NCBI GenBank assembly: GCA_963815855.1
Contig: CAWFIJ010000017.1
Location: 13,416-77,415 of the forward strand
Length of the DNA stretch: 64,000 nt
Source: Terriglobia bacterium
GTDB lineage: Bacteria > Acidobacteriota > Terriglobia > Bryobacterales > Bryobacteraceae
Direction of reading: 5' to 3'
Shown: one piece after another, positions 72 to 49,220 of the stretch
Position numbering within the stretch: position 1 is the stretch's first letter
Layout: the number at the start of each line of letters is the position of its first letter
Position numbers and translations under genes: made by a program
The notes under the pieces: generated by a model
Seen by the model: only the letters and a program-made list of their open reading frames with translations
What the model was told of the DNA's origin: nothing
Database searches by the model: none

Positions 72-2764
72 TTAGTTCGCTGCCGAAGCGTTCCAGCCGT
101 CCAGCTGAATCTGTACGGGTCCGCCCAGATCCTTGCGGTGAACCGTCGCCGTGACTGCCCGCGTTTCGCCGGGGAGCAGCGAGAAATCGTTGTCCTCCCA
201 AACACGGGAGCGATGTCGCGGCCGGCGGCGACGACGCGCAGGTGCACGAAAAAGGCGAGATGCGTGGTCGGGTTGGCGACTGTGATGCGCTCCGATTTCA
301 TCCGCGCCTTTGGATTCGGCGCGCGAGGCAGCTTCAACTGCACCGGCGGGAGTTGATCGAGCGCGGTGAAATCGGCGTAGGTTCTTGAGCGGCGTGGTGT
401 ACCAATTGGCTGCCTTCCAGTCGGAGACGTCCGGCTTGCGTGGAGAGCCAGTAGAAGTTGGAGCCCGGCGAGCGCGCCGGCGTGGTCGCGCAAGTCCAGC
501 TTGACGAAGTAGACGGCGGAGAGGCCGGCGATTTCGGGAAGCGTCGAGCACGCGGGTGGAGCTGTCCGCGGCGATATCGACGGGCGCGGACTTCGAAATT
601 TCTCGGCTGCGTCCAGGTTGTAAACCTTGGCCGTCACGGTGTAGCCGGGGAAGGCGCGGTAATAGGAGTTCACCACCACCACCGAGCGATCGTCGTAGGA
701 ATACTGCACGTGCAGCGGCTCGCTGGCTATTCTTGGTGCCGAAATAGCCGCCGCCGGGGCGCAGGTACTAGTCGTAAAGATGCCAGATGATGGAGGGCCA
801 GGCGTTGTTGAGCATCCACTGGACCACGCCGGTGGCGGCGTACTTGTTGCGGCCGTAGGCCTCGAACATGGCGCGCTCGCCTTCGTAGGCCATCACCTGG
901 CTCTTGCGGACGTAATCCTCCAGGTCCTTGGCCTTGCCGTAGCGGTTTTCGAGGGCCGTGGTGAAGAGCCTTGACGGTGCGAAACTCGCCGCCGCCGGCG
1001 TGGAAATTCCAGAACTCGTCGATGGGCCAGAGGTGCTCCTTGGGCAGCATCTCCCGCAGGCTGGCCAGCTCCGGGATGGCCGGGCCGGGGCTGGTTTCGG
1101 TGTTGAAGCCGAAAGCGCCGCCTGGCCGAGACAGGCCGGCGCGGCGCGCGGCGGCTGACTCGTCCTCCCTCGCGCGGGGCGCACTGCCCGCCCTCGCCGG
1201 CGGGACGCGTGCCGGGATCCTGCAGCCAGTAATTGGGCGCCACGTAATCGTACGGGCCGGTCATTTTGACGCCGGTTACGCCCGGCGCCTGGGGTGGTGC
1301 GGTCGGCGGCGGAAGAGATGTAGGGGTCGGGCCAGCGCTCCTCTTCGAGCACCTTCAGGTAGACCTTTTCGGCATCGGGAACGGGCGAATTGTCGCTGCC
1401 GTAGAGAAAGGCGAGGACGCTGGGGTGGTTGCGGATGCGCCGCAACTGGTCGCGCAGCGATTCGCCGGCGATGGTGTAATCCTCGGGCTTCCAGTTTCGC
1501 CAGCGCTCCCAATAGGAGCAGCAGCACCAGCCGGCCATGACCAGAATGCCCTGGCGGTCGCAAGCCTCATAGAAATGGTCGTTCATGAGCTTGCCTTCCA
1601 GGCGGATGGTGTTGAGGTGCATGTCGCGGACGTAGCGCAGCTCGTCGTCTTCGCGCGCGGGCGAGAAGCGCAGCATCATGTCCTGCGTCCAGCCGCCGCC
1701 GCGGATCAGGATTTTCTGGCCGTTGATCTGGAAGAGGCGATGCTTCTGCGCGTCGAGCTCGGAGGTGACTCGGCGGATGCCGAAATCGAATTCCTGGACG
1801 TCGGAGACCTGGCCGCCGACGATGAATTCCAGGCGGGCGCGATACAGATTCTGCGGGCCGAGCGGGTAGGGCCACCAGAGCTTGGGATTGTGGATCGTGA
1901 GCTGCGGGTAATCGGCGGGGGTGAGCGCGGTGCTGAGGTTTTGGTGCGGCCCAAGCTTCACGCTGCGCGACACGGAGATATTGCCGATGGTGGCCTTGAG
2001 CGTGCCTTCGATTTCACGGCCGGAGGCGTTGCGCAAGTCCGCGGCGAGGGTCAGGCCGGCGGAATCGAGCGAAGGGGCGAGATCGGTGAGCGCCTGCGGG
2101 TGGCGCACGGCCACCGGGCCGCTCATCAGCACGTAGACATCGCGCACCAGGCCCATATCTTTATCCGGCGGCATGGGGTTCCAATCCACGAAGGTGAGGC
2201 TGAGGTCGTTCTGGGTGGGCGGGAGCACTTCGACGGCCAGGGTGTTGACGCCGCCGGGCGAAGCGAATTCGGTGATATCGAATTCGAACATGCGGTACAT
2301 GCCGGCGGCCTTATCCGCGGCCGCCGATCTGGTGGCCGTTGAGCCAGATGTTGGCGCGGTAGTTGATGGCATCGAAGTTCAGCCAGATGGTCTTGCCTTT
2401 GGCCGAGGCGGGCAGGCGGAAGGCGGTGCGATACCACCACGATTTGGCGAACGGGCTATCGGCCGGCATGGGCAGGTTGGAGAAATTCTGGCCCGACGTT
2501 GTAGCTGACCCCGGGATAGGAACGGAGGTTCATGCCGAAATCAGGGTCGGGGTAGACCTTGTTGGCGACCAGCGCGGCCACCACGGTGGAGGGAACGGAC
2601 GTGGCGTACCAGGCGCGCGCCTGGAAGGCGGCGGTGGAGATGACGGCGCCATTCTCCGCCACGCGGGCGGAAGCTTGGATGCGCCAGTCGAGATCGAGAC
2701 TGACGCGGGTGGAAGGCTGAGCCAGGAGTACGGGGCAGAGGGCGGCCAGAAGCAGGCAACGCAT
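72..2764 (-). pseudogene. GH2-family glycosidase (exo-beta-D-glucosaminidase/beta-mannosidase-like), frame-interrupted as assembled
   Basis: Fragments in several minus frames join into one protein. ORF 2456..2926 gives the signal peptide MRCLLLAALCPVLLAQ. ORF 768..2372 gives the core (LFQINGQKILIRGGGW, NTIRLEGK, ILVMAGWCC). ORFs 893..1264, 727..1050 and 72..551 give the C-terminus. At least 4 frame changes. Confidence 0.75.
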
Positions 2765-2838
2765 ACGTCCGCACGGTAACACGGTGCGAGGCGGGGTGGA
2801 CGGGTAGTCCTGTATACCGCTCCCCGGCGGTCGCCCTT

Positions 2839-2952
2839 CCGTAGCGCCGCCTTCCAGGCGGCCCGTGCCGGCTTCCCAGCCGGCATTCCACGGCAACGAC
2901 GTATGCCGGCAGGTATGCCGCGGCATGGCCGGCCGGAAGCCGGCGCTACAGG
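2839..2952. repeat. REP1 composite palindromic repeat
   Basis: CCGTAGCG-GCCGCC/TTCCA/GGCGGC ... TGCCGGC/TTCCCA/GCCGGCA ... GCCGGC/CGGAA/GCCGGC-GCTACAGG. Terminal 9-bp inverted repeat GTAGCGCCG/CGGCGCTAC. Lies between the GH2 start and the tauE stop. Confidence 0.7.
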
Positions 2953-2968
2953 CTGGCGCGCAGGCGCT

Positions 2969-3718
2969 CTACAGCGCTCGCCAGCAAAGTTGCAGGCCCA
3001 CGAACATCAGCCAAAGGCACAGCACCGCCCGCAGCGGCTTGGCCGGCAAAGCGCCGGAAAGCTGTACTCCCGTCAGCCCGCCCACCATGCCGCCGGTGAG
3101 CAGCGGCTTGAGAATCGCCGGGGTGGCGTGCGCCATGCTCCAGTGCACGCCGCCCCCGAGCAGCGACAGGCCCAGACCGAAGCAAATGTCCGTGCCGATG
3201 ACTGTCGCCGCGGCCAGCGGCGTCAGGTTCATGAGCGCCAGCGTGCCCAGGGCTCCCGCCCCGGCCGAAGAAAAACCCACCTCCGCGCCGATCGGCAGCG
3301 CCACCAGCGGCAGCCAGCCCGAGCGGTCTTTGGCCACGCAACTGTTGTGCTGGCACCACCACAACCGCCACAGGTTGAATGCCGCCGTGGCCGCGATGGT
3401 CCCGCCCAGAACCGAAGTCAACAGCGCCGATTGTCGCGACGCGCTCAGCTTTTCGAGCAGCAGCGATCCCGCCAGCACGCCCGGCAGCCCGCCCGCCAGC
3501 AGACGCCCCAGGATGCGGAAATCCACCTGTCCGCGCCACAGATACGCCGGCGCCACCAGCATCTTCACCGCCGCCGCGAACAGCAGCGACACCGTCACCG
3601 CCTCTACCGGCGGCACGCCCAGGAACAGGATGAGCACCGGCGCGGTAACCACCCCGCCGCCCACCCCCGTCACCCCGATCGCCACCGCGATCAGAAATCC
3701 CAGCAGCACCGCCAGCAT
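2969..3718 (-). CDS. TauE/SafE family sulfite exporter-like membrane protein
   Basis: ORF 2969..3793. Internal start MLAVLLGFLIAVAIGVTGVGGGVVTAPVLILFLG is the typical TauE N-terminus. Polytopic and hydrophobic. ATG lies 1 nt after the cysH stop. Confidence 0.85.
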   Translation of the reverse strand: MLAVLLGFLIAVAIGVTGVGGGVVTAPVLILFLGVPPVEAVTVSLLFAAAVKMLVAPAYLWRGQVDFRILGRLLAGGLPGVLAGSLLLEKLSASRQSALLTSVLGGTIAATAAFNLWRLWWCQHNSCVAKDRSGWLPLVALPIGAEVGFSSAGAGALGTLALMNLTPLAAATVIGTDICFGLGLSLLGGGVHWSMAHATPAILKPLLTGGMVGGLTGVQLSGALPAKPLRAVLCLWLMFVGLQLCWRAL

Positions 3719-3719
3719 A

Positions 3720-4481
3720 TCAGTTCCCTTCGGAAACCCCTTGTGACCGCTCCGCCGGATCTTCCCGCAGGTCCGGTCCGCCGGAGGCGGCATGCCGCCC
3801 TGCCAAGGGCTTGGCCGCCCCGATGTGGATGCCGCACTCCAGCTTGTGCCCGCCCCACCGCCCCGACCGCAAATCCTCCTGGCTGGCCGGCAGCGACGTG
3901 CACGGCGCGCACCCGATGCTGGTGTATCCCGCCTCGTAAAGCGGCAGCGCCGGAATGCCGGATTCCTTCAGGTAAGCCCAAACCTCGCGGTTGCGCCACG
4001 CCGCCAGCGGGCTGATTTTGCGCAGCTCTTTTCCCGTCGGCAGGCGGAAAACGTCGCTCGCCAGCAGATTGGCGCGCGTCGGCGATTGCTCCCGCCGCAG
4101 GCCCGTAAACCAAACCTCGTACCCTTCGAGCGCCCCGAACAGCGGCGCCACTTTGCGCATCGCGCAGCAGCGGTCCGGCGCCGTCTGGTACAAAATCCCG
4201 AACTGCGCTTCCTGGTCCGCCACCGTCTGCGCCGGCGTCAGATTCACCAGGTTCAGATTCCAGGCGGCCGCCATGCGGTCGCGGTACTCATAGGTCTCGG
4301 CGAAATGGTAGCCGGTGTCGAGGAACAGCACGGGGATTTCCGGCCGCTCGCGCGTCACCAGGTGCGTCACCACCATGCACTCGGCCTGAAAGCTGGAGGT
4401 CACGCACGCGTTCTCGCCCGCTTCCGCCAGCGCCTCGCGAATCAGGGCGCGCGCTTCTTCGATTTGTTTTTCTAAATCCAT
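3720..4481 (-). CDS. cysH: Adenylyl-sulfate (APS)/PAPS reductase, Fe-S type
   Basis: [10 protein letters not shown]... start at 4481 inside ORF 3720..5012. Motifs DRCCAMRKV and SIGCAPCT (CC...CxxC) plus the catalytic ECGIH. Confidence 0.9.
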
Positions 4482-8651: not shown

Positions 8652-9575
8652 ATGTCACTCATCGTCGTTGGCTCCGTTGCGTATGATGGCGTGGAAACGC
8701 CGCACGGCAAAGTGGACCGCATGCTCGGCGGCGCCGCCACCTATATTTCTCTCGCCGCCAGCTACTTCACCCCCGTCAAAATCGTGGCCGTGGTCGGCGA
8801 CGATTTCGCGCCGGAGGATTACGATCTGCTCGCCTCCCGCGATATCGGGCTCGGACGGCCTGGAGCGCGTCCCCGGCGGCAAGACTTTCTTCTGGGCGGG
8901 CGTCTACTCGGCCGACATGAACGACCGCACCACCCTCCGCACCGACCTCAACGTCTTCGCCGGCTTCGACCCCAAGCTGCCGGAATCCTACCTGCGACTC
9001 GCCCTACCTGCTGCTCGGCAATATCCAGCCGGCGCTGCAGCGCAGCGTCCGCACCCAGATGCCCGGCGCCCGCCTCACCGGCGGCGACACCATGAATTAC
9101 TGGATCAACGATTACCGCGCCGAGCTGCTCGAAACCCTCCGCCAGTGGGACTTCCTGCTGATCAACGACAGCGAAGCGCGCCTGCTTTCGGGCGAGCACA
9201 ACCTGCGCCGCGCCGCCGCCAAGATCATGGAGATGGGCCCGCACACCCTGGTGATCAAGCGCGGCGAGTACGGCGCCATCCTGTTCCACCACGGCTGCCA
9301 CTTCTTCGCTCCCGGCTATCTGCTCGAAGACGTCTTCGATCCCACCGGCGCCGGCGATTGCTTCGCCGGCGGCTTCATCGGCTACCTGGCCGGCCGCGGT
9401 GTTCAGCCGTCGCGACGGCAATCTGGATATGGACGAGCTGCGCCGCGCCGTGATCTACGGCTCCGTGATGGGCAGTTTCTGCTGCGAGAAGTTCGGCGTG
9501 GACCGTTTCCGCACGCTCACTCGCGAGGAAATCGAGGGCCGCTATCAGGAATTCAAAAGCTGCACCTCGTTTTAG
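8652..9575 (+). pseudogene. PfkB-family carbohydrate kinase, frame-interrupted
   Basis: MSLIVVGSVAYDGVETPHG... in ORF 8652..9095. DFLLINDSEARLL and DPTGAGDCFAGGFIGYLA in ORF 9059..9772. The tail ELRRAVIYGSVMGSFCCEKFG... ends at TAG 9573-9575. Confidence 0.75.
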
Positions 9576-9603
9576 CCCGGGCCAGGCCGCCGTCTTTTTC
9601 GGT

Positions 9604-11038
9604 TTGCCCCTGCTCAGCGCGGCCGCCGTCTGGTATTTCTACTCCCGCGGGTACCTGCTCTGGTACGGCGATGCCGAAGCGCATCTCAACGCCGCCCGCC
9701 GCCTCTTCGATTCCCAAACTCCCGGCGCCAGCCAGGTGGGCACGCCGTGGCTGCCGCTGCCGCATTTTCTGACCGCGCCCTTCACGGCGGTGGACGCCTG
9801 GTGGCGCAGCGGCATCGCCGCCGCCGTTCCGGCCGCGTGCGCCTTCGTGGCCGGCGGCTTTTTCCTGTTCGCCGCCGCCCGCCGCATCTTCCAATCCACC
9901 GCCGCCGCCGTCGCCGCCACCGCCCTGCGCCGCCTTCAACCCCAACCTGCTCTATCTCCAATCCACCTCCATGACGGAGGCCTATTTTTCGGCGAGCTGG
10001 CCGCGCTTCTGTATTTCACCGTCGCCGATTGCCCCAGTCCTGGCCGCGCTGCGCTGACCATCGCCGCCACCTTCACCCGCTACGAAGGCTGGTTCCTGCT
10101 GCCGTTCGCCGCCGCCTGGTTCTTCTTTCGGCAAACCGCGCCATGCAGTGCTGTATGCCGCCATCGCCGCGCTCGGTCCGCTGGCCTGGCTGCCCACAAC
10201 TGGTACTGGACCGGCGACGCCCTCGCCTTCTATCGCGGCCCCTATTCCGCCCGCGCCATCCAGCACGGCCTGCCCTATCCCGGCCTGCACGATGCGGGCG
10301 CCGCCTGGCTCTACTACCGCACCGCCGTCGCCCTCTGCGCCGGTCCCGGGCTGCCGCTGATGGCCACGGCCGGCGCCGTGGTGGCGCTGGCGCGAAAAGC
10401 CGTCTGGCCCCTAATCCTTCTGGCGCTTCCGCCGATCTTCTATCTCTGGAGTATGTACTCGTCCGGCGGAACTCCCATCCACGTGCCCGGCCTGTGGCCG
10501 CATTCCTACTACAACACCCGCTATGGCCTGGCCGCCCTGCCGCTGCTGGCCTTTGCCTCCGCGGCGCTGGTGCTGGCCGTTCCGCCGCGGCTCCGCGCCA
10601 TTACCGCCGTGCTCGTCATCCTGGCCGGCTCCGTCCACTGGGCCGTCCATCGCCGACCCGAAGCCTGGATCACCTGGGCCGAATCCCGCGCCAATTCCAC
10701 CGGCCGCCGCGCCTGGACCGCGCAGGCCGCGCAGTATCTGGCCGCCCGTTACCATCCCGGCGTCGGCATCCTGTCCTCCGGCGGCGACGATTTTTTCGGC
10801 ATCTATCGCAGCGCCGGCATTCCGCTGCGCGAAACCTTCAGCATCGACAACGGCCTGGCCTGGGATGCCGCGCTGGCGCGCCCCGATCTCTATTTCCGCC
10901 AGGGATGGGCAGTCGCAGGCAGGGCGACGAACTGGACGACGCCATCCGCCTCTCCGGCCAGTATCAGCTCTCGAACTCACCATCGTCGAAAAGGATGAGC
11001 CGGTCATCGCCATTTACCGGCGCATCGGAGGCCCATGA
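9604..11038 (+). pseudogene. Polytopic membrane protein, GT39/ArnT-like putative glycosyltransferase, frame-interrupted
   Basis: ORF 9604..10998 (WYGDAEAHLNAARRLFDSQTPG, many TM segments). Frame hops include 10029..11294. The C-terminal tail ELTIVEKDEPVIAIYRRIGGP is in ORF 10523..11038. ATGA overlap with dapF. Confidence 0.55.
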
Positions 11039-11836
11039 AAATTCCCTTCACCAAGGCGCACGGCGCCAAGAACGATTTCCTGCTCACCTGGCAACGCGGA
11101 CGCGCCCGAGGACGATCTGCCGGCCCTCGCCCGCGCCATCTGCGACCGCCATACCGGCGTGGGCGCCGATGGCTGGATGCTGGTCGCGCCCGCCCGCGAC
11201 GCCGACGCCGAAGCCGCCATCCGGCTCTACAACTCCGACGGCAGCACGGCCGAAATTTCCGGCAACGGCACGCGCTGCGCCGCCGCATTGCTGATCCGCC
11301 ATGGCCTGGCGCCCGGGCGTGGTCCGCATTCGCACCGGCGCGGGCATCAAGACCCTGCGCCTGCTGGCCCGCTCCGAACCTGGAATTTCGAGTTCGAAAT
11401 GAATATGGGCCGCGCCGAGATGCGCGACCCGCGCCTCGACCTGCCGCTCGCCGCCGGCCCGCGCGAAGTCACCCTGGTCTGGGTGGGCAATCCGCAATGC
11501 GCCGTGCCCGTGGACGATTTCGATTTCGACTGGCGCGCGCTGGGCGCCGAAATCGAATCGCATCCGCACTTTCCCGATCGCACCAACGTTTCCTTCGTCA
11601 AGCGCGTGGACGCAACACACCATCGATGTGCGCTTCTATGAGCGCGGAGCGGGCGAGACCATGAGTTCCGGCACCGGCTCGACGGGCGCCGCCGTCGCCG
11701 CTGTGGCCCGCGGTACAGTGGAATGGCCGGTGTGCGTGCAGACTCCCGCCGGCCCGCTCGAAATCCGTTGCCAGGACGACGATTTACCTGACCGGCCCGG
11801 CCGAAATCGTCGCGCGAAGGCGAATTCTTCGTGTGA
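11035..11836 (+). pseudogene. dapF: Diaminopimelate epimerase, frame-interrupted
   Basis: MKIPFTKAHGAKNDFLL, GADGWMLV...YNSDGSTAEISGNGTRC, VWVGNPQCAV, YERGAGETMSSGTGSTGAA are spread over ORFs 11035.., 11159.. and 11628... The stop is read as TGA 11834-11836. Confidence 0.8.
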
Positions 11837-11853
11837 GAAAATCGCTTTAATCA

Positions 11854-13185
11854 TGCCCGAAGCTCAAATTGCAGTCGCATCGCATCGCACAGGTTCTGGA
11901 AGAAAAGATCCGCAGCGCGCACGGCCCGCGTGGGCATCGTCGGGCTGGGCTACGTCGGCCTGCCGCTGGCCGTGGAATTCGCCAAAGCCGGCTTCACCGT
12001 CACCGGCATCGACATCAGCGAAGCGAAGACCCGCGCGTCAACGCCGGCGAATCCTACGTCGGCGATATCCCCAGTCCGCCACTCTCGGCCCGCTGGTCGA
12101 ATCCGGCAAGCTCCGCGCCACCACCGATTTCTCCGCCGTCCTCGATCTGGACACCATCAACATCTGCGTGCCCACGCCGCTGCGCAAGACCAAGGACCCG
12201 GACATGAGCTACATCGTCTCGTCCTGCCAGGAGATCGCGCAAGTATTTCCACGCCGGCATGCTGGTGATTCTGGAATCCACCACCTATCCCGGCACCACC
12301 GACGAAGTGGTGCTGCCCATGCTCGCGAAATCCGGCCTGGAAGTGGGCACGCGATTTCTTCCTGTGCTTCTCGCCCGAGCGCGTCGACCCCGGCAACCCC
12401 AAGTACCAGACCGCCAACATTCCCAAAGTGGTGGGCGGCGTCACCGCCGCCTGCACCGAGATGGGCCGCGCTGTTCTATTCGCAGGCGCTCGAACACGTG
12501 GTGCCGGTCAGCTCCACGCAGGTGGCGGAAATGGTGAAGCTGCTCGAAAACACCTTCCGCATGATCAACATCGGCCTGGTGAACGAGATCGCGCTGATGT
12601 GCGACCGCATGGGCATCAACGTCTGGGAAGTGATCGACGCCGCCGCCACCAAGCCGTTCGGCTTCATGCCGTTCTATCCCGGCCCCGGCCTGGGCGGCCA
12701 CTGCATTCCCATCGATCCGTTCTACCTTTCCTGGAAGACCAAGCAGGCCGGCATCGAAGCGCGCTTCATCGAGCTGGCCGGCTACATCAACGGCCAGATG
12801 CCGCACTTCGTGGTGGACAAGGTGCAGAACGCGCTGAACGACGCCGGCAAGCCGGTGAAGGGCTCGCGCATCCACGTCATGGGCGTGGCTTACAAGCGCG
12901 ACATCGACGATATGCGCGAATCGCCCGCGCTGGACGTGATGCTGCTGCTCGCAGCGGCGCGGCGCGCAGCTGACGTATAGCGACCCGCACGTGCCCGTGC
13001 TGCGCCTGGACGGCCTGAACCTGCAGGCCTGCCCGGAAGCAGCCGCCGCCGACGCCGATTGCGCCGTCATCATCACCGACCACACCGCCTTCGACTACCG
13101 CGCCCTGGTGGAGCGCGCGCCGCTGATCGTGGACACGCGCAACGCCCTGAAGAAATTCGCCTCGCCGAAAATCGTGAGGCTGTAA
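11854..13185 (+). pseudogene. Nucleotide-sugar (UDP-N-acetyl-hexosamine/UDP-glucose family) dehydrogenase, frame-interrupted
   Basis: GIVGLGYVGLPLAVEFAKAGF, ILESTTYPGTT, FSPERVDPGN, GLGGHCIPIDPFYL, GVAYKRDIDDMRESPA, IITDHTAFDY across ORFs 11930, 12259, 11628 and 12991. The start is uncertain. Confidence 0.8.
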
Positions 13186-13230: not shown

Positions 13231-13340
13231 CCGTGGAGCAAGCTTTCAGGTTGCCATGCCGGCTTTCAAGCCGGCATACCGGATCCAGCCGGAATGCCGG
13301 CAAGGACGCCGGCATGGCCGCCTGAAAGGCGGCTCTACGG
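13231..13340. repeat. REP1 composite palindromic repeat
   Basis: CCGTGGAGCAAGC/TTTCAG/GTTGC-CATGCCGGC/TTTCAA/GCCGGCAT ... TGCCGGC/AAGGAC/GCCGGCA-TGGCCGCC/TGAAA/GGCGGCT-CTACGG. Confidence 0.7.
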
Positions 13341-27100: not shown

Positions 27101-27155
27101 CCGCACGGATGCCGGCACGAATGCCGGCATGGCCGGCTGGAAGCCGGCGCTACGG
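27101..27155. repeat. REP1 repeat (short copy)
   Basis: CCGCACGG-ATGCCGGCA-CGA-ATGCCGGCAT-GGCCGGC/TGGAA/GCCGGC-GCTACGG. The terminal CTA (27150-27152) is the PPTase stop codon on the minus strand. Confidence 0.6.
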
Positions 27156-27731
27156 GAAATCGTGCATCGCCACGCGCATGCCTTCGCGCGGCGCGGCGGC
27201 GGCGGCGGCATAGCCGGGCGCGGCGTCCAGCTCCGCAATCGTCCACGGCCCGACGATCTCCGTGCCGGCCGCGTAGATCCCGATGCCGCGCGCTTTCACC
27301 ACGGCCTCGATGCGCGTCCAGCGGCGGAAAAAATCCGGCTCGCTCTCCACCTCCGCCGCCTGGGACGGCGGAAAGAAGCGCTCCGCCAAAGCGGCGTATT
27401 CGGGCATGGGGCGGATCCATTCCACGTCCACGCCGACTTCCACCTCCAGCGCCACGGCCACCAGCGCCATTTCGTGCGAGTGAGACAGGTTGAATTTCAG
27501 GTGCGGCGCGGCGGGCAGAAACGGCTTGCCCATCTCCGCGACGGCGAAGTCCAGGCGGGCGTCCGTCATTCCGCCGAGGATTGCACGCAGAGCGGCGTGC
27601 GAGCGCAGGTAGCGCCGCCGCAGGTCGGGGGTGGCGAAGCGCGCCGCGCGCGCCGCTTCCCCCGCGGTAGGCTCCGGCGTTTCCGCCGCGTCCAGCCGCA
27701 CGCGCCAGACATGGATTTCGCCTTCGTTCAC
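27150..27731 (-). CDS. 4'-phosphopantetheinyl transferase, Sfp/EntD type
   Basis: C-terminal part of ORF 27150..28400: GEIHVWRVRLD...GKPFL...KFNLSHSHEMALVAVA...GVDVEWI...FFRRWTRIEAVVKARG. Its GTG start overlaps the TE stop (GTGA at 27728-27731). Confidence 0.75.
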   Translation of the reverse strand: MNEGEIHVWRVRLDAAETPEPTAGEAARAARFATPDLRRRYLRSHAALRAILGGMTDARLDFAVAEMGKPFLPAAPHLKFNLSHSHEMALVAVALEVEVGVDVEWIRPMPEYAALAERFFPPSQAAEVESEPDFFRRWTRIEAVVKARGIGIYAAGTEIVGPWTIAELDAAPGYAAAAAAPREGMRVAMHDFP

Positions 27732-28470
27732 GCCGCGTCGGCCTCCAGCGCGCGACGAAACTCCGCCGCGCTCTCGCGCCAATAAAAGTGGCCGCCGGCG
27801 AACAGGCGCACGGCGAACGAAGCGGTGGTCTCGCCGGCGCCAGGCTTCCAGGTGATGCGGCAGAATGTCGGGATCGCCGCTGCCGCCATAGGCGCGGATG
27901 GGGCAGGCGAGCGGAGCGTCGTCCCGGTAGGCGTAGTAGCTGTAGAGATTGGTGTCCGCCCGCAGCGCCGGCAGCACCGCGCCGGCCAGCTCCGGGGCGA
28001 TGTTGAGCTGCTCCAGCAATTCGCCGTCTGATGCCGGCGGCGGCGGCACGTGGCCGCGGCGGAACTGCGGCGCGCGCGCGGCCGAGGCGATCAGGATGCG
28101 CGGCAGCGGCAGGCCGCGCCGCCGCAGCGCCCGCGCCAGCTCGAACGCCACCACCGCGCCCATGCTGTGGCCGAAGAACGCAAAACGGCTCGGCGGCGTA
28201 CGGCTCGATGGCCGCGGCCAGTGCTTCCACCAGCGGCTCCATGCGCTCGAAGGGCGCTTCCAGCAAGGCGCGATTCGCGGCCGGGCAGGCGCACCGGGAT
28301 GTGGGGCAGATCGAGCGCCTGTCCCGCGAGCGTGCCGCCGCCCGCGTGCGGGAACCAGAACAGGCGGGGCGCGGAGACCCGATCGATTCCCGGGAACCAC
28401 GCCGCCGCGTGCGCCCGCTGGCGCAGCCGCAGCCCGAGCAGCCGCCGTTTTTCGGGCGAGAGGGCCGATA
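27728..28470 (-). pseudogene. Type-II thioesterase (alpha/beta hydrolase), frame-interrupted, 5' end unresolved
   Basis: WFPGIDRVSAPRLFWFPHAGGG (ORF 28091..28975), FAFFGHSMGAVVAFELA and LRADTNLYSYYAY (ORF 27150..28400). My own reading of the tail FAGGHFYWRESAAEFRRALEADAA ends at TGA 27728-27730. Confidence 0.7.
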
Positions 28471-28479
28471 ACCCTTTAT

Positions 28480-28548
28480 CAGAGCCGCGACCGTCGGGGA
28501 GCGGTTCATTCGGGCTCTCTGTGTCGCTCCCTGACGGTCGCGGCTCTG
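28480..28548. repeat. REP2 palindrome (two arms) inside an open frame
   Basis: CAGAGCCGCGACCGTCGGGGAGCG (28480-28503), a loop, then CGCTCCCTGACGGTCGCGGCTCTG (28525-28548). Confidence 0.75.
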
Positions 28549-28550
28549 GT

Positions 28551-29728
28551 TCAGGCCTGCGTAGACATTCCTCCAGCAGCTTTTCGAACGGCTCTACGCT
28601 CAGGTGGCTGCGTAGTCGAGCGCGGCCCGCCGCGATGCCCGTGCGATCTCTTCGTAATGGGCGCGTTCCGTAAGCAGCCGCGCCAGCGCCTCGCGCCACG
28701 GGCCGATATCCTGCGGCGGCACTTCCGCCACCGGCACCATCTGCTCGTCCACCTCCGGCCGGTATCGTTCGATGCGGCTGCACCGGCAGCAGATAGGGCA
28801 CGCCCATCTTGGCCTCCGGGATGCCGCCCACGTTCGCGGCCATCACCGGCACGCCGCGCAGCATGGCCTCCAGCACGATGCGCGAACGCGCCTCGGCCCA
28901 CAGCGAAGGCACCAGCAGCACGCGCGTGCGGGCGAACAGCAGGTTGATATCGTCCACCGGGTGGAGCAGGCGCACGTTGGGCCGCGCCGCGCAGCGCGGC
29001 GCGGTCGCGCCGGTTGGTGCCCCAGCCGGTCACGGCGGCGAACGCGGTTGCGGGGAACGCATCGGCCAGCGCCAGGAAGATGTCGATGCCTTTTACCGCG
29101 CAGGGGTTGACCATGGTGACGAACTCGTTGTCGAAGCGCCCCAGCTCCGGCCATGCCTCCGGCTCCAGCAGCGAGATGGGCACGTGCACGGCATCGATGC
29201 GCGGCATAGCGGCGGCAGTAATCGGCCACGTATTGGCTGACGCCCACCACGCGGTCGCAGGCGCGAATGCGGGCGGTTTTGGCTTCGCTCGGAAAGGCGC
29301 AATCGGGGCCGAACGGAAGGGCCAGGGTGGCCCGCGCCAGGTAGACGACGCGCGCGCGCGGGCTGCCGCAGCGCCGCTTCCAGCAGAAGCTGCGCGGGAT
29401 CGTCGGTGGAAGCCAGGATCACGTCCGGGTGGAATTCCTCCGCCTGCGCGGCGAAGTAGGCGCGCGGGTTGGCGTTCGTGACCACGTGCACGTCCACGCC
29501 GTTGCGCGCGAAGCGCACCACGCCGGCCGCTGCTTCCGGCGCAACGCCGCGGGCCGCCAGTTCCGCCAGGTACTGCCGCTCTTCGCGCTCTCCGAAGACG
29601 CTGATGCGCGCCACCGCGCGGCATTCGTGCCCGCGCGCGGCCAGCGCTTCCATCAGCAGGCGGTTGGATTTATCGCCGCCGCCGTGGGCCGGATAGTAGA
29701 GCGAATTTTGCGCCAGCAGGATGCGCAT
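28551..29728 (-). pseudogene. GT4-family glycosyltransferase A, frame-interrupted
   Basis: MRILLAQNSLYYPAHGGGDKSNRLLMEALAARGHE (29728). VTMVNPCAVKGIDIFLALA (ORF 28551..29624). VPSLWAEARSRIVLEAMLRGVPVMAANVGGIPEAK (ORF 28091..28975). The 3' end is ambiguous, see findings. Confidence 0.7.
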
Positions 29729-29758
29729 GGGTCACGTAGCAATGGCGCGCAGTGCGTT

Positions 29759-31012
29759 TCAGGCGGTTGCTGGCCGCAGGCCGTTGCCGCGCAGGAGCGC
29801 GCGCTTCTCCGGGCGTAGAGCGGATTTCGCATCGGTGCGCGCTACGATCCTCCGGCGGCGCGCTCGCGCGGCGCGTCTCGGCGAAGCGATCGAGGTCGGC
29901 CAGGCCAGGAAACGCGCTCCGATAGCTCGCCGGCGCATCCAGCCCGCTCGACGAACGCCAGCGCCGCCGCGCGCGAGGCCGCCGATTCGCGCTCGTACGC
30001 GGCGCGATCGCCAGCAGCTCTTCGCATGGCCTCCACCCACGGCGCGATGTCGTTCTCGCGGCACCACCGGCTGCGGCATGGCGTGCTCGTCGAACACCGG
30101 CAGGTAGCGCTCGATGGTGCGCACCGGAATCACGTAGCCGGTGCCGCGCTTGGCTTCGTGCAGTCCGCCGGAATCGCTGGCCACCACCGGGATGCCGCGC
30201 AGCATGGCCTCCATCACGATCAGGCCGAAGCCTTCGTACCACAGCGAGGGCATCAGCAGCATGCGCGTCTGCGCCAGCAGTTCGTCGATCTGGCGCGCGT
30301 TGGGCGAGCAGGCGGACGTTGGGCAGGCGCGCCAGCGCGCGCGCGGTCCTCCGCGGTGGTGCCCCATCCCGGCACGGCGGCGAACGGCGCGCGCGGGCAG
30401 GCGCTCGGCCAGGCGCAGAAAAATAGCGATGCCCTTCACCGCGCAGGGATTGATCATGGTGACGAGCGCCGCGCTCGAAGTTGCCGAAATTGCGGGAACG
30501 GGCCGGGGCCGTAAATGGGCGGATGAATCACCAGCGGCGCGGCCGGCCCAGAGTCGCGCTCGATATATTCCGCCATGTGCCGGCCGATGGCGACGATGCC
30601 GGCCGACGCGCGCCACCAGTTCGGCGGCGTGCGGGTCGGGATTCCAGCTGGCCGGGCCGAAGGGAAAAAACTGCGGCGTGTGCGCCAGGTAGACCACGCG
30701 CCCCGGCGCCGCGTGGTGCGCTTCGCGCAGCAGGCCGTGGCCGAGGTCCTCGGAGGAGACCAGCACCCAATCGGGCTGGAATTCGCGGATCTCGCGCCGC
30801 AGCGTCTGCACGCGGCGCGCCGGGTCCTCCACCGGCAGCACCGCGATGGAAGGGTGGATGCGCCAGTTCGGCGGCGGGCGCGGACGGGCCGCAGACCACG
30901 CGGCAGCTGGTGGCCGGCGCGCGCCAGGTGATCCAGCCAGATCGAGATTGCTGCGCGTGGCTCCGCCGCGCGGCGGCGCGTAGGAGGCGTTGGCCGTCAG
31001 CAGGATGCGCAT
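29759..31012 (-). pseudogene. GT4-family glycosyltransferase B (paralog of A), frame-interrupted
   Basis: MRILLTANASYAPPRGGATRSN, VTMINPCAVKGIAIFLRLA, MPSLWYEGFGLIVMEAMLRGIPVVASDSGGLHEAK in ORF 29759..31012, with hops into 29670..30242. Its ATG lies 4 nt after the PCP stop. Confidence 0.7.
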
Positions 31013-31015
31013 CGG

Positions 31016-33061
31016 TCAGGACGTGCATCCTGCTCTTCGGCCAGCAGCGCGCGCACTTCGTCGTCGGACAGCCGTTCCAGCTCCGCGCAGCAGGTCCTGG
31101 TAGTCGCCGCCCGCCTGCTCGATTTCCTTCAGCTCGACGGCCTTGGCCAGCTCGGCCACGGTGAATTCGCCGCTGTAGACCACTTCGAGCGAGAGCTCCA
31201 CGCCGTAGATCTGGCGCACGCGCGAGAGCAGTTGCACGGCCAGCAGCGAATGGCCGCCCAGCTCGAAGAAATTTTCGATGGGGCCCGACCGCGGGGACGT
31301 TCAGCAGGTCCGCCCAAAGCTCGGCGAGCTGGCGCTCCAGGCGGTGCGCGGCTGGATCGGCGCGGCGCCGGCGCGGGTTTTCCGGAGGCCGCGCGAACGC
31401 GCTCGAGCACCGCCTCGGGAGTGCGCAGGGCGGTGGCGATCCTGACGTAATCCGGGACCGCCCGTTTACGCTCGCGGCTCTGCTGCGCGGGGTGGTGGCG
31501 CCGCCGCCTGCCGCTCCACCCGGTACCGGACGGCCGCGGCCGCTTCGGCGCTCAGAAATCCGGCGGGCGCCATGCCGGTGGATTCCAGGAACAGCGCCGC
31601 CGGCCGGTTGCGCTGGTCCGGCCACGAACGGAATCTCCACGCGCGCCAGGCCGCGCTCGCGGGCGATTTCGCCCAGCCGCGCCACCATGCGGTGCTCCAC
31701 GCCGCGGCCCAGCGCGCGGCAGCTCAGCAGGAACGTATCCACCGCCAGCGCGTCCGCGGCTCGAGCGGAAGATCATCACGCCGGAGAGGCCGTAGTCGCC
31801 GAAGCGGTCGCCCACCTCGACGGCGAGGCATTTCGGAATCGAGCGCGCGCGATTTCGGCCTCGTTGCGCCGCGCCAGCGTGGCGTTCATCTGGTTGGTGC
31901 GCTGGGTGAGCTGCGCCACGCGCGCGACTTCGCGCGGCGGCCATCGGCGCGAATGCGAACTTCGCAGGCGCAGCGAGGCCAGAAACTCTTCCAGGCTGCC
32001 GGCGGCGCGGCCGGCGCGCGCGCGCTCCGCGTGCTGCGCGTAGAATTGCGCGCGGCGCGCGGTCCTCGGCGGTGACGCGGGCGCGGTCGAAGGCCCAGAC
32101 GTGGCGCAGAAAATCGGGAATTTCGGCGGCGTCGGCGGGCAGCGGCAGCGCCAGCACCTCCGGCGCGGCGGCCTGCGCTTCGGTGCATTCCTTGGGGTTG
32201 TCGTCCACCAGGATGAAGCTGTCGAGGCCCAGCTCCAGCTCTTCGGCCAGCGCCGCCAGGTTGGCGCCCTTCGGCTCCCAGTTGATGCGGCGGGCGGCGA
32301 AATCGTCCAGCCGCAGCGGCATTTCGGGATGGGCGCGCGAAGGTCTCGAGCACGTCGTGCTTCGTTGTTCTTGCTGCCAGCGCCAGCAGCATGCCCTCGC
32401 GCTTGCGCTCCGCCATGAACTGCTGCAGCGCGCGGCGCGGCGCGTCGAGGGTGACGCCGTGCGGGCCCTTCCTCGCCGCAGATGCCGGCCCACAGGGTGT
32501 CGTCGCAATCGAGCGCGATCACCTTGTACGGCGGCGTGCGAAATGGCGTGGATTTTGCGCGCGATGGCGGTGGCCAGCGCGGCGAAGAAGTCCGGCGTGT
32601 AGGGCAGGTGGCCGAGCTGGTCGGCGTGGGGATCGTGGACCTCCGCCACCGGATAGAGCGCCTGCACCTCGCACGGCGGCGATGACGTGGACTCCGGCCA
32701 GGTCGGCCAGCGCGAATGGCGGACCGTGGCTTCGGCGGCAGCCTCGGCCGGCGGGCAGATGACCAGGATCAGCGGGGCAGGAAAAGCGGCGGCCGTGCGC
32801 ACGGCCTCCACCAGCCGGCGCGCTTCGGCTTCCATGCCGGCCTCGCGCCAGTCCGCGAAGCGCACCAGCGCGACGTTGAAGCCGCGATTGCGGGCGAACA
32901 GGCCGGCGGGATCGAGAAGCTGCTGGAAAACCTGGTTATAGCCGGCGAAGCGGAGAACCGGGTCGAGGCCCAGTTCGGCGGCCCAGAAGGACAAGCGAGG
33001 GCTCGATCGCTTCGGCGGTGAAGGTGGCGCTCAGGGCGATCGTGCGATCGTCGGTGGGCAT
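31016..33061 (-). pseudogene. FkbH-like (HAD-IIIC) loader with GNAT-like domain fused to a PCP-type carrier domain, heavily frame-interrupted
   Basis: MPTDDRTIALSATFTAE (ATG 33061), FAGYNQVFQQLLDP, IALDCDDTLW (DxDxT), INWEPKGANLAALAEELELGLDSFILVDDNPKEC, DRFGDYGLSGVMIF, LLSCRALGRGVEHRMV. My own reading gives IENFFELGGHSLLAVQLLSRVRQIYGVELSL. Stop at 31016. Confidence 0.75.
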
Positions 33062-33110: not shown

Positions 33111-33183
33111 GGCGGCTTATGCCGCCCTAGCGGATATGCCGGCAAGAATGCCGGCATGGCCGCCTGGAAAGGCGGCTCTACGG
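33111..33183. repeat. REP1 repeat
   Basis: GGCGGC/TTAT/GCCGCC ... ATGCCGGCA-AGA-ATGCCGGCAT-GGCCGCC/TGGAAA/GGCGGCT-CTACGG. Confidence 0.7.
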
Positions 33184-41445: not shown

Positions 41446-41522
41446 GGTGGGTGTAGCTCAGCTGGTAGAGCGCCGGATTGTGGTTCCGGTGGCCGAGGGT
41501 TCGAATCCCTCCACCCACCCCA
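41446..41522 (+). tRNA. tRNA-His (anticodon GUG) with encoded G-1 and CCA
   Basis: 8-bp acceptor GGTGGGTG/CACCCACC (G-1:C73). D arm TAGCTCAGCTGGTAGAGC. Anticodon stem CCGGA/TCCGG with loop TTGTGGT. T arm GAGGG-TTCGAAT-CCCTC. 3' CCA at 41520-41522. Confidence 0.9.
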
Positions 41523-44134: not shown

Positions 44135-48214
<4,080 letters not shown>

Positions 48215-48238
48215 ACCGAGCGGGCTCCGAAGATTCAT

Positions 48239-49220
48239 ATGACCGAATCGTTCGACGCTATCGTGGTGGGCGCCGGTCCTACCGGGCTGGCCTGCGGGAT
48301 CGAGCTGCAGAATCGCGGCGTCAAGGCCGTGCTGATCGAAAAGGGCTGCGTGGTCAATTCCATTTACCACTACCCCACGCATATGACCTTCTTCACCACG
48401 CCCGAGCTGCTGGAAATCGGCAACATCCCGATGACCAGCCTCAACGAGAAGCCCAATCGCACCGAGGCGCTCAAATATTACCGCCGCGTGGCCGATCACT
48501 TCCACCTGGATATCCGGCAGTACGAGCGGGTGGACCGGCATCGCCGGCGAGGACGGCGATTTCGAGGTTTCCACCACGGACCGGCTGGGATGCCGCCATC
48601 TGTATCGTGCCCGCAAGATCGTGCTGGCGACGGGCTATTACGATGTCCCCAATCGCCTCGACGTTCCCGGCGAAGACCTGCCCAAGGTGATGCATTATTA
48701 CAAAGAGCCGCATCCCTATTACAACCATGACGTCGCGGTGATCGGCGCGAAGAATTCCGCCGCCATTGCCGCGCTCGAATTGTGTTGGACGGGCGCGCGG
48801 GTCACACTGATTCATCGCGGAGCGGGTATTTCGGATCGCGTAAAGTACTGGATCAAGCCGAATATTGAAAACCGCATTCAGAACCGCGAAATCGCCGGTT
48901 ATTTCCATTCGCGAGTTACGGAGATTCTGCCCGAATCGATTCGCGTGGCTACGCCTGAAGGTGAAATTTTCTTAAGAAACGATTTTGTCTTCGCCCTCAT
49001 CGGCTATCGCCCGGATCTGGAATTTCTCAACAGTATTGGCATATCGCTCGAGCCGGAGACGCAGCGCCCGCGTACCAACCCGGATACGCTGGAAAGCCAG
49101 CGCGCCGGAATCTACCTGGCGGGCGTGATCGTCGCGGGTATGCATACTAATGAGATTTTTATTGAAAATGGTAGATTTCACGGCCAGTTGATCGCGACCT
49201 CCATCGCAGCTTCCCTGTAA
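48239..49220 (+). pseudogene. YpdA-family FAD/NAD(P)-dependent (putative bacillithiol-disulfide) reductase, one frame change
   Basis: FDAIVVGAGPTGLACGIEL, VVNSIYHYPTHMTFFTTPELLEIGNIP, ALKYYRRV in ORF 48239..48730. ATGYYDVPN...VIGAKNSA...YLAGV in ORF 48621..49220. Confidence 0.75.

Follow-up and report, generated by a model that had tools for sequence, protein, structure and literature searches.

How might a bacterium use a carrier protein, together with enzymes that prime, load and empty it, when nothing is at hand to extend the unit that the carrier holds? The question is raised by a locus of Terriglobia bacterium (Acidobacteriota; Bryobacterales; Bryobacteraceae), contained in the 64 kb stretch of contig CAWFIJ010000017.1 (assembly GCA_963815855.1) that was analysed here as a whole and is referred to as the window. 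Its minus strand bears a cassette encoding an FkbH-like loader fused to a peptidyl carrier protein (PCP), hereafter FkbH-T; two glycosyltransferases (GTs) of family GT4, the second of which is joined to a thioesterase (TE); and a phosphopantetheinyl transferase (PPTase). An initial annotation, made from the bare sequence, had tentatively read this set as a means of glycosylating a carrier-tethered glyceryl unit that the TE then releases. That reading is supported, at the level of sequence comparison, by every comparative test available, and it is strengthened because GT-GT-TE fusions exist and because GT4 domains occur at the N-terminus of non-ribosomal peptide synthetases (NRPSs) near FkbH-T (loci L063, L084 and L087). 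Taken whole, the proposal is that of an intact operon of four genes, self-contained and of a 'glyco-thiotemplate' kind, in which sugar would be added on line to a glyceryl-S-carrier before a (di)glycosyl-glycerate is set free; in our estimation it stands at an even balance.

Gene content of the cassette and the state of its reading frames

The raw map of open reading frames (ORFs) between positions 33061 and 27150 of the minus strand is a set of overlapping, intertwined frames. The genes were reconstructed by frameshift-aware protein-to-DNA alignment (dynamic programming) of intact homologs to the window, plain tblastn being unsuited to frameshift mapping in DNA whose high GC content yields long spurious out-of-frame alignments, and the reconstructed proteins were scored against the curated cut-offs of Pfam and NCBIfam. 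Four genes result, all on the minus strand:

33061-31016, minus strand: FkbH-T (FkbH-PCP with a docking-like tail); 615 of 674 residues identical to the homolog P0001; 18 frame events
31012-29732, minus strand: GT4-a; 311 of 408 residues identical to the L004 ortholog; at least 11 frame events
29728-27728, minus strand: GT4-b-TE, ~664 aa; 550 of 669 residues identical to the L004 GT-TE protein; 8 frame events
27731-27150, minus strand: Sfp/HetI-type PPTase, 193 aa; 166 of 193 residues identical to the L004 ortholog; no frame events

The initial annotation had counted five co-directional genes; the common direction holds, and the count falls to four with GT4-b and the TE in a single gene. The loader, carrier, GT, TE and PPTase motifs that it had listed are all present, and the five models that it had named for them (TIGR01686, PF00550, PF00534, PF00975 and PF01648) are matched. 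The genes are packed end to end. At 31018-31010 the sequence reads TGA-CCG-ATG, with the FkbH-T stop (31018-31016) followed after 3 nt by the GT4-a ATG at 31012; a junction of the same type, TGA-CCC-ATG, lies at 29734-29726 between GT4-a and GT4-b-TE; and the GTGA at 27731-27728, in which the PPTase GTG start overlaps the GT4-b-TE stop, can be read directly, as had been said. The tight spacing reported between the PCP stop and the first GT is likewise as described (the 3 nt being CCG), with the qualification that FkbH-T would stop at TGA 30999-30997 if the frame of its last aligned residues were kept; the TGA at 31018-31016 serves as its stop only once a further +2 insertion is removed, which the relatives favour.

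FkbH-T, at ~674 aa, is composed of an N-terminal BF1531-like domain, an HAD-IIIC/FkbH core, a GNAT-like domain containing the cysteine of an LLSCR motif, a PCP with a GGHS motif and a docking-like helical tail. It scores above the cut-offs for FkbH (TIGR01686; 274.8 bits against 146.65, residues 177-492), HAD-IIIC (TIGR01681; 45.9 bits against 35.75) and the PP-binding domain (PF00550; 58.7 bits against 20.8, residues 572-636), and its carrier motif, FFELGGHSLLAV, is the only carrier-domain motif in the whole window. After frame correction the HAD motifs LDCDDTLW, SKNNE, NWEPK and VDDNP are all present, SKNNE being coded between a -1/+1 indel pair. Loss of the catalytic residues on frame correction had been named as grounds for abandoning the initial reading; instead, D183, D185, T187, S228, K262, D284, D285, the LLSCR cysteine (C443, in LLSCRALGRG) and the carrier serine (S598) are invariant in the 26 closest FkbH-T sequences, which have a mean column identity of 77 %. 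In the wider database, a hand-stitched FkbH query retrieved >3,000 homologs, the best 120 of which are ~635-823 aa long (most 665-700), carry a PP-binding domain, are 70-91 % identical to the query, come mostly from Bryobacteraceae and are named in the source as FkbH-like or HAD-IIIC phosphatases. An AlphaFold model was available for P0001, 91 % identical to the window protein, in which the N-terminal domain (predicted local distance difference test, pLDDT, ~80-90) and the C-terminal Cys-bearing domain (~85-95) are the better-defined parts. Foldseek searches of the PDB with it matched the N-terminal domain plus HAD to BF1531 (3slr, E = 3e-13); the Cys-bearing domain to GNAT acetyltransferases (probability 1.0, target-normalised TM ~0.5-0.68), in keeping with the GNAT-like domain of the initial annotation; and the C-terminus to PCP domains (1.3-2 Å rmsd) and to PaxA T1-CDD (7b2b). 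By both sequence and fold, the conserved helical tail after the carrier (T) domain matches the end of PvdL and the C-terminal docking domain of PaxA T1.

Both GTs score above the cut-offs for PF13439 and PF00534/PF13692, the two-domain profile of GT4. GT4-a, of GT-B type, exceeds those for PF13692, PF00534, PF13439 and PF20706 and contains the EX7E motif YEGFGLIVMEAM (EGFGLIVME). In GT4-b-TE, the GT part occupies residues 1 to ~385, with the EX7E motif WAEARSRIVLEAM (EARSRIVLE), and a linker leads to the TE at ~450-660. That the two GTs are paralogs, as originally claimed, is borne out by 41 % identity over 374 aa (E = 4e-79). Their best NCBIfam matches are weak ones to BshA/MshA-type enzymes (E = 7e-11 and 1e-6, far below the family cut-offs), and other weak matches are to GTs of exopolysaccharide (EPS) and lipopolysaccharide (LPS) synthesis. 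The TE is recognized by PF00975 (95.2 bits against 26.4, residues 454-653 of GT4-b-TE) and has the motifs GHSMG, Asp and GGHF, with a Ser-Asp-His triad. A sequence search of the PDB gives as its best solved matches 3qmv (E = 1e-32), which we take to be RedJ, then RifR (3fla), TesA and the surfactin synthetase TE subunit. Type II thioesterases act on acyl-S-carrier proteins and are free-standing; this TE shares a polypeptide with a GT4, both in the window and in all the intact relatives that were seen, including L001, L003 and L004, where GT4-b and TE form one gene of 620-669 aa. Longer fusions also occur. Lengths of 900-1150 aa are found in 72 of the 120 best database matches, in a ranking that favours long proteins, and the 15 long matches included in the GT-TE alignment (A3) each hold GT-a, GT-b and TE in one chain; across that alignment the GT4-b glutamates E278/E286 and the TE residues G522-H523-S524, D621 and H649 are invariant, and the EX7E motif of GT4-a is conserved in the fused GT-GT-TE members. 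The gene fusions suggest that the GTs and the TE are functionally coupled. The PPTase, finally, is of Sfp type at the family level only (PF01648, 37.6 bits against 25), as it reaches 108 bits against the HetI model NF042922, whose equivalog cut-off is 370.

Every gene but the PPTase had been reported as frame-interrupted, which is correct, at a density (18, 11, 8 and 0 events) far above that implied. Were these interruptions, ~37 of them in the three broken genes, real mutations, the cassette would be a decayed relic, non-functional here. Such a view can point to the frame breaks that the sequence, as it stands, shows in three of the four genes, and to a dN/dS of 0.39 against the intact L006 gene, not a very low value; the figure is an upper bound (<=0.39), as short out-of-frame stretches raise dN. 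Against it, 42 of the 45 frame events in the five aligned genes of the 25.6-33.1 kb interval (7.4 kb) are +1/+2 insertions, whereas gene decay in bacteria is deletion-biased; not one in-frame stop is found in any of the five frameshift-aware alignments; all catalytic motifs are retained; and the intact FkbH-T gene of L006 is 94.7 % identical in its DNA, with 20 insertion events in the window as opposed to two deletions, the inserted bases being mostly single G or C in GC-rich, non-homopolymer contexts. Nor is the damage confined to the cassette. A GC3 phase scan finds patchy frame switching over the whole window, with 36-40 kb and 56-60 kb clean; the essential alaS (46523-48687) is also split between frames, judging from Pfam matches to overlapping ORFs; a UDP-glucose dehydrogenase is broken, one ORF chaining fragments of it to fragments of a diaminopimelate (DAP)-epimerase; and a PfkB kinase is broken and truncated. 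Because of the insertion bias, the lack of in-frame stops and the like breakage of alaS, the frame breaks are best described as what they are, insertion-type consensus errors of the assembly and not gene decay. Pseudogenisation of the cassette is unlikely, and its being a dead relic is very improbable indeed. The practical lesson is that dense frame breaks at this locus reflect assembly and not biology; within the reconstruction, the C-terminal ~50 residues of GT4-a are poorly resolved.

Conservation across relatives and the search for extension enzymes

Related loci were gathered from one genome per species, and the best 80 were mapped by tblastn and by signature motifs of NRPSs and polyketide synthases (PKSs). 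The order FkbH-T, GT, GT-TE recurs in 50 non-redundant loci, each of a different species, nearly all of them Bryobacterales or other Terriglobia, with FkbH-T identities to the window protein of 44-86 % and stop-to-start gaps between the GT genes of mostly 0-13 nt. The synteny proposed as a check of the initial annotation is therefore found. All four neighbourhoods that were inspected (L001-L004) repeat this order with a single GT4-TE gene, after which come a PPTase (L003, L004), a D-2-hydroxyacid dehydrogenase (L001, L004) or the two together; farther out, the flanks of one neighbourhood bear no relation to those of another. In the 50 loci overall, accessory genes are less constant: a PPTase accompanies 11 and a 2-hydroxyacid dehydrogenase 12, and an EntS-like major facilitator superfamily (MFS) transporter (TIGR00900, 179 bits, below the cut-off) lies divergently and directly upstream of FkbH-T in 13 (e.g. 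L003:8110-9405), though not in the window. GT-GT-TE triple fusions account for four of these species-level loci. In some loci the cassette genes are spread apart by 1.3-5.4 kb of additional DNA, which lies either between the two GT genes or between FkbH-T and the first of them (L025:13264-14706, L028:5186-6625, L026:12094-17520). A variant in Bryobacteraceae consists of FkbH-T, one GT4 and an FkbM methyltransferase, without a thioesterase (L035:12208-14398, L043:12478-15063), the GT and methyltransferase being fused in L043.

It had been claimed that the cassette and its surroundings contain no ketosynthase (KS), condensation (C) or adenylation (A) domain, with the proviso that such partners might sit just outside it. 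The claim holds at both scales. Tblastn (E ≤ 0.01) and the signature-motif scan detected no C, A or KS-acyltransferase (AT) domain in the 64 kb window, and the surroundings of the 50 cassette loci, taken to ±10 kb, yielded no KS, AT, A or C motif. By the rule that a modular NRPS or PKS has at least one C, A or KS/AT domain, the cassette lies outside that class. Which domains are present, their conservation, their fusions and the lack of extension enzymes in these intervals are all direct observations.

More distant FkbH-T homologs do sit in or adjoin NRPS/PKS genes (L052, L063, L077, L080, L084 and L087), and at L063, L084 and L087 a GT4 domain related to those of the window is found inside the synthetase itself. 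In both L063 (Herpetosiphonaceae) and L084 (Pyrinomonadaceae), FkbH-T is immediately followed by a GT4-C-A-T protein, its GT4 being 47-50 % identical to the window GTs; the range across embedded GT4s is 46-50 %. In L087 (Chloroflexia bacterium SDU3-3), GT4-C-A-T lies one gene downstream of FkbH-T, in the order two sugar nucleotidyltransferases plus an HAD hydrolase, FkbH-T, a GT28/EryCIII-like GT, GT4-C-A-T and C-A-T-TE-MFS_3. A GT placed between a loaded carrier and the next C domain is as expected of an on-line tailoring step. When GT4-C was used as query, ~100 cluster representatives were obtained, either GT4-C-A-T (~1,500 aa) or GT4-C (~920 aa), all unnamed; this family extends over Acidobacteriota, Chloroflexota and Myxococcota, some members coming just after FkbH-T and others after an ordinary C-A-T module. 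The GT4-NRPS proteins located here are:

L063:12154-19551, GT4-NRPS protein
L084:12248-16072, GT4-NRPS protein
L087:10001-14557, GT4-NRPS protein
L088:10001-12754, GT4-NRPS protein
L089:10001-14725, GT4-NRPS protein

The embedded GTs of L087-L089 are nearly equidistant from GT4-a and GT4-b (46-49 %), and the idea that GT-b is the core partner and GT-a an add-on, suggested by the best scores of single-GT variants against GT-b, was dropped as a firm claim. Two further features of these NRPS regions may be recorded in their own right. The terminal protein of L087 (14572-19992) is called as a single 1,806-aa C-A-T-TE-MFS_3 chain with an EntS-like end, which is either a seemingly unusual fusion of synthetase and exporter or a read-through in gene calling, and L082, from an uncultured Chloroflexia metagenome-assembled genome, has two FkbH-T modules 8 kb apart (1924-3957 and 10001-11989) in one NRPS region, which would place two glycerate-type units in one product.

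A putative pathway, competing readings and flanking genes

From what the families are known to do, we infer a substrate, its sugars, an order of steps and a mode of release. The Sfp-type PPTase would first convert the PCP of FkbH-T into its holo form. FkbH would then draw on 1,3-bisphosphoglycerate, passing through a phosphoglyceryl-S-enzyme that is dephosphorylated at the HAD site, and place D-glycerate on the carrier in cis as glyceryl-S-T; this is the route described for FkbH and OzmB, which go from 1,3-bisphosphoglycerate to a phosphoglyceryl-S-enzyme and, after dephosphorylation, to a glycerate-loaded carrier protein (PMC9057759, PMC7489565), the residue that bears the S-enzyme intermediate going unnamed in the account (PMC9057759). 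An FkbH domain has likewise been proposed as the glycerate loader of an NRPS loading module (PMC8609519). With the motifs in place, glyceryl loading by FkbH-T is quite probable. In a third step the two GT4s may dock on the T domain and its tail and O-glycosylate the tethered glycerate, one sugar each, giving a product with both hydroxyls modified or bearing a disaccharide, as the fusions and the NRPS-embedded homologs would suggest. A precedent for a glycosyltransferase that acts on a carrier-bound intermediate is PtmJ (PMC9092360), and glycosylation on the carrier seems to us slightly the better bet. Lastly, by its similarity to type II enzymes, the TE fused to GT4-b may hydrolyse the thioester and free the (di)glycosyl-glycerate; simple hydrolysis is offered tentatively, and somewhat against our own expectation. 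In some relatives the product may be exported, an EntS-like MFS exporter adjoining the operon in ~1/4 of related loci.

A number of points weigh against this scheme. To spend a thioester merely on freeing a glycosylated primary metabolite looks energetically wasteful, a cost that the GpgS/GpgP route avoids, and since the usual purpose of a thioester is to hand on its acyl group, hydrolytic release is open to doubt and there are hints that the TE may transfer the acyl group elsewhere. The T-domain tail, which in sequence and in the model resembles an NRPS C-terminal docking domain, could signify a partner encoded elsewhere in the genome. GT4-C units also occur without a nearby FkbH (L088, L089), and this GT clade is accordingly not strictly glycerate-specific. 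The acceptor and donor cannot be read from sequence, the sole match in a PDB sequence search with GT4-a spanning just the nucleotide-binding motif, and the AlphaFold model is of only moderate confidence (mean pLDDT 71.6, with 37-60 in the HAD core).

The doubt over release leads to a rival in which the acceptor is a sugar, glycolipid or oligosaccharide that the GTs make or hold, and the TE, as an acyltransferase, moves the glyceroyl group onto that glycan in ester or amide linkage, or else oligomerises or cyclises glycosyl-glycerate units. Activation as a thioester is easier to understand if the acyl group is to be transferred than if it is to be hydrolysed off, the TE and a GT form one polypeptide, and the EntS-like exporter at 13 of the 50 loci, like the MFS_3 domain fused to the terminal NRPS TE of L087, suggests a product that leaves the cell. 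Yet among solved structures the TE is nearest to free-standing type II thioesterases, and these enzymes are hydrolytic; no genes for building an acyl acceptor, no lipid-carrier GTs and no flippases recur in the flanks examined; and the NRPS-embedded GT4 lies upstream of a C domain, where attachment of the sugar to the tethered acyl group would be expected to place it. We regard glyceroyl transfer as unlikely. The docking-like tail bears on a different proposal, that FkbH-T serves as loading module to an NRPS or PKS whose genes lie elsewhere in the genome and recruits that partner in trans by its tail, with the GTs tailoring the starter and the TE proofreading it. The NRPS-type T domain, the embedding of distant FkbH-T homologs in or beside NRPS/PKS genes at the six loci named above and the frequent role of type II TEs as editing enzymes would all suit such a split pathway, to which we nonetheless give a small chance: the 50 cassette loci (±10 kb) and the window are devoid of C, A and KS motifs, the cassette is compact, translationally coupled and moves as a unit between unrelated neighbourhoods, and a TE-GT fusion is not what would be expected of a generic editing enzyme.

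That the GT4s might belong to an EPS/LPS locus, serving a polysaccharide pathway unrelated to the carrier protein or merely decorated by it, had been named from the start as a possible refutation. Annotations of GT4 enzymes often name them as GTs of cell-wall or EPS synthesis, the window GTs have their weak NCBIfam matches to EPS/LPS enzymes, and LpxD/LpxA-like acyltransferases lie 3-5 kb upstream of the cassette in L003. However, no Wzx/Wzy, polyprenyl-phosphate GT, chain-length, flippase or export gene is found in the Pfam-annotated flanks of L001-L004 or among the recurring neighbour clusters of the 50 loci (the window flanks were checked by ORF inspection, with Pfam on the oxidoreductase gene described below alone); the flanks are not conserved between loci; and the GTs are fused to a TE and, in other phyla, to NRPS C domains. 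A polysaccharide role is highly improbable on these grounds. If the operon reading is carried over to the relatives, dedicated GT4 domains that O-glycosylate a carrier-bound hydroxy acid may form a distinct class of thiotemplate chemistry, a generalization we place a little short of even. Its GT4 module would come in three architectures: with a fused TE (GT-TE, GT-GT-TE), giving the condensation-free glycosyl-glycerate pathway of Bryobacterales; at the N-terminus of NRPSs (GT4-C-A-T, GT4-C), which would lead to glycosyl-glyceroyl peptides; and with an FkbM methyltransferase.

The remaining features of the window are listed here:

26915-25599, minus strand: GFO/IDH/MocA oxidoreductase with a twin-arginine translocation (TAT) signal; 364 of 430 residues identical to the L001 ortholog; 8 frame events
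27119-27142, plus strand: palindromic repeat resembling repetitive extragenic palindromic (REP) elements, in the 237-bp spacer between the PPTase and GFO/IDH/MocA genes
33146-33169, plus strand: REP-like palindromic repeat upstream of the FkbH-T start
13304-13327, same strand as the other copies: third, more diverged REP-like repeat
11628-12977: broken ORF chaining DAP-epimerase and UDP-glucose dehydrogenase (Pfam on ORFs)
9059-9769: broken PfkB kinase ORF (Pfam on ORFs)
41447-41522: tRNA-His (GTG), the sole tRNA of the window

The GFO/IDH/MocA protein matches PF01408 and PF19051. A gene for such a TAT-signal protein lies downstream in ~12 of the 50 loci on the tblastn map, with one ORF cluster spanning nine loci, and only in the closest clade. 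This enzyme and the 2-hydroxyacid dehydrogenase were not adopted as members of the pathway, given that they accompany the cassette in that clade alone; the TAT signal speaks further against the oxidoreductase, which is probably not part of it. The D-2-hydroxyacid dehydrogenase of close relatives, which occupies the interval between PPTase and GFO/IDH/MocA genes, was not found in this window, and the REP copy at 27119 stands in its place. The REP-like element, GAATGCCGGCATGGCCGSCTGGAA, has three same-strand copies in the window as against none expected by chance. REP repeats on both sides of the cassette had been said to fit a discrete unit; they are indeed there, and with the third copy elsewhere in the window they are better seen as an ordinary intergenic repeat, so that the flanks as a sign of a mobile unit were rejected.

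Relation to known systems and significance

All of the components belong to known families, and their combination differs from each known use of those families. FkbH/OzmB loaders that work with a discrete acyl carrier protein (ACP), in methoxymalonyl-ACP and tetronate formation, share the TIGR01686 core, the HAD DxDxT motif and the conserved Cys-bearing C-terminal domain, and the same chemistry, from 1,3-bisphosphoglycerate to glyceryl-S-carrier, is expected here (PMC9057759, PMC7489565); the window protein has in addition an extra N-terminal domain and a fused NRPS-type PCP with its docking tail. The FkbK/FkbI-type dehydrogenases, O-methyltransferase, FabH-like tetronate synthase and PKS of those pathways are not seen in the Pfam-annotated flanks, and a KS motif is present at none of the loci. 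The FkbH-T loaders of NRPSs whose chains begin with glyceric acid, such as SuoB of suomilide and those of the aeruginosin/dysinosin family, have the same FkbH-PCP fusion and a proposed role in glycerate loading (PMC8609519), and more distant homologs of the window protein occur in such NRPSs; in the window and the 50 loci, the C or A acceptor domain is lacking and a GT-fused TE stands in that place. PtmJ, from pactamycin biosynthesis, glycosylates a carrier-tethered acyl group before release (PMC9092360) and is likened to the present GTs by function only. It couples N-acetylglucosamine to an ACP-bound beta-ketoacyl group inside a larger polyketide-derived pathway, whereas in the cassette a hydroxy acid would be the acceptor, with no chemistry other than glycosylation.

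For the TE, the closest comparison is with the stand-alone type II enzymes (RifR, TesA, the surfactin TE subunit, YbtT and 3qmv), its best sequence matches, with which it shares the Ser-Asp-His triad, GHSMG and GGHF. They are free-standing, whereas the window TE is the C-terminal domain of a GT or GT-GT-TE protein. The predicted product class, mono- or diglycosylated glycerate, is that of the GpgS/GpgP, mannosylglycerate, mannosylglucosylglycerate and diglucosylglycerate synthases. These canonical routes start from free 3-phosphoglycerate or glycerate and use GT81/GT78-type enzymes and a phosphatase, without a carrier protein, PPTase or TE. The window GTs are of family GT4 and the only phosphatase is the HAD site within FkbH, so that the cassette does not belong among them. 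BshA/MshA-type GT4s also glycosylate small hydroxy compounds (malate, inositol phosphate); the weak matches of both window GTs to them cover just the C-terminal nucleotide-sugar half, far below the cut-offs, and the window GTs are not members. No description of the cassette, or of such a carrier route to a sugar-acid metabolite, was found in the literature searched, which misses most subscription journals.

Rule-based mining tools such as antiSMASH are expected to overlook the cassette because it is without a KS, C or A domain. It is also linked to the large and unstudied group of NRPS proteins that contain an embedded GT4. If the proposed pathway is right, the cassette would represent a minimal case of a carrier protein on which glycosylation is the sole chemistry, and so offer a clean in vitro model, and it would establish on-line glycosylation as a tailoring step of assembly lines. 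Among soil Acidobacteria, the Bryobacterales rank with the commonest, and most of them are uncultured. With FkbH-T so strongly conserved and the cassette present in at least 50 species-level genomes, it is probably important to the physiology of its hosts, e.g. in stress protection, envelope chemistry or as the source of an exported metabolite, and it would, if the pathway holds, represent a second, carrier-dependent route to glycosyl-glycerates in abundant soil bacteria.

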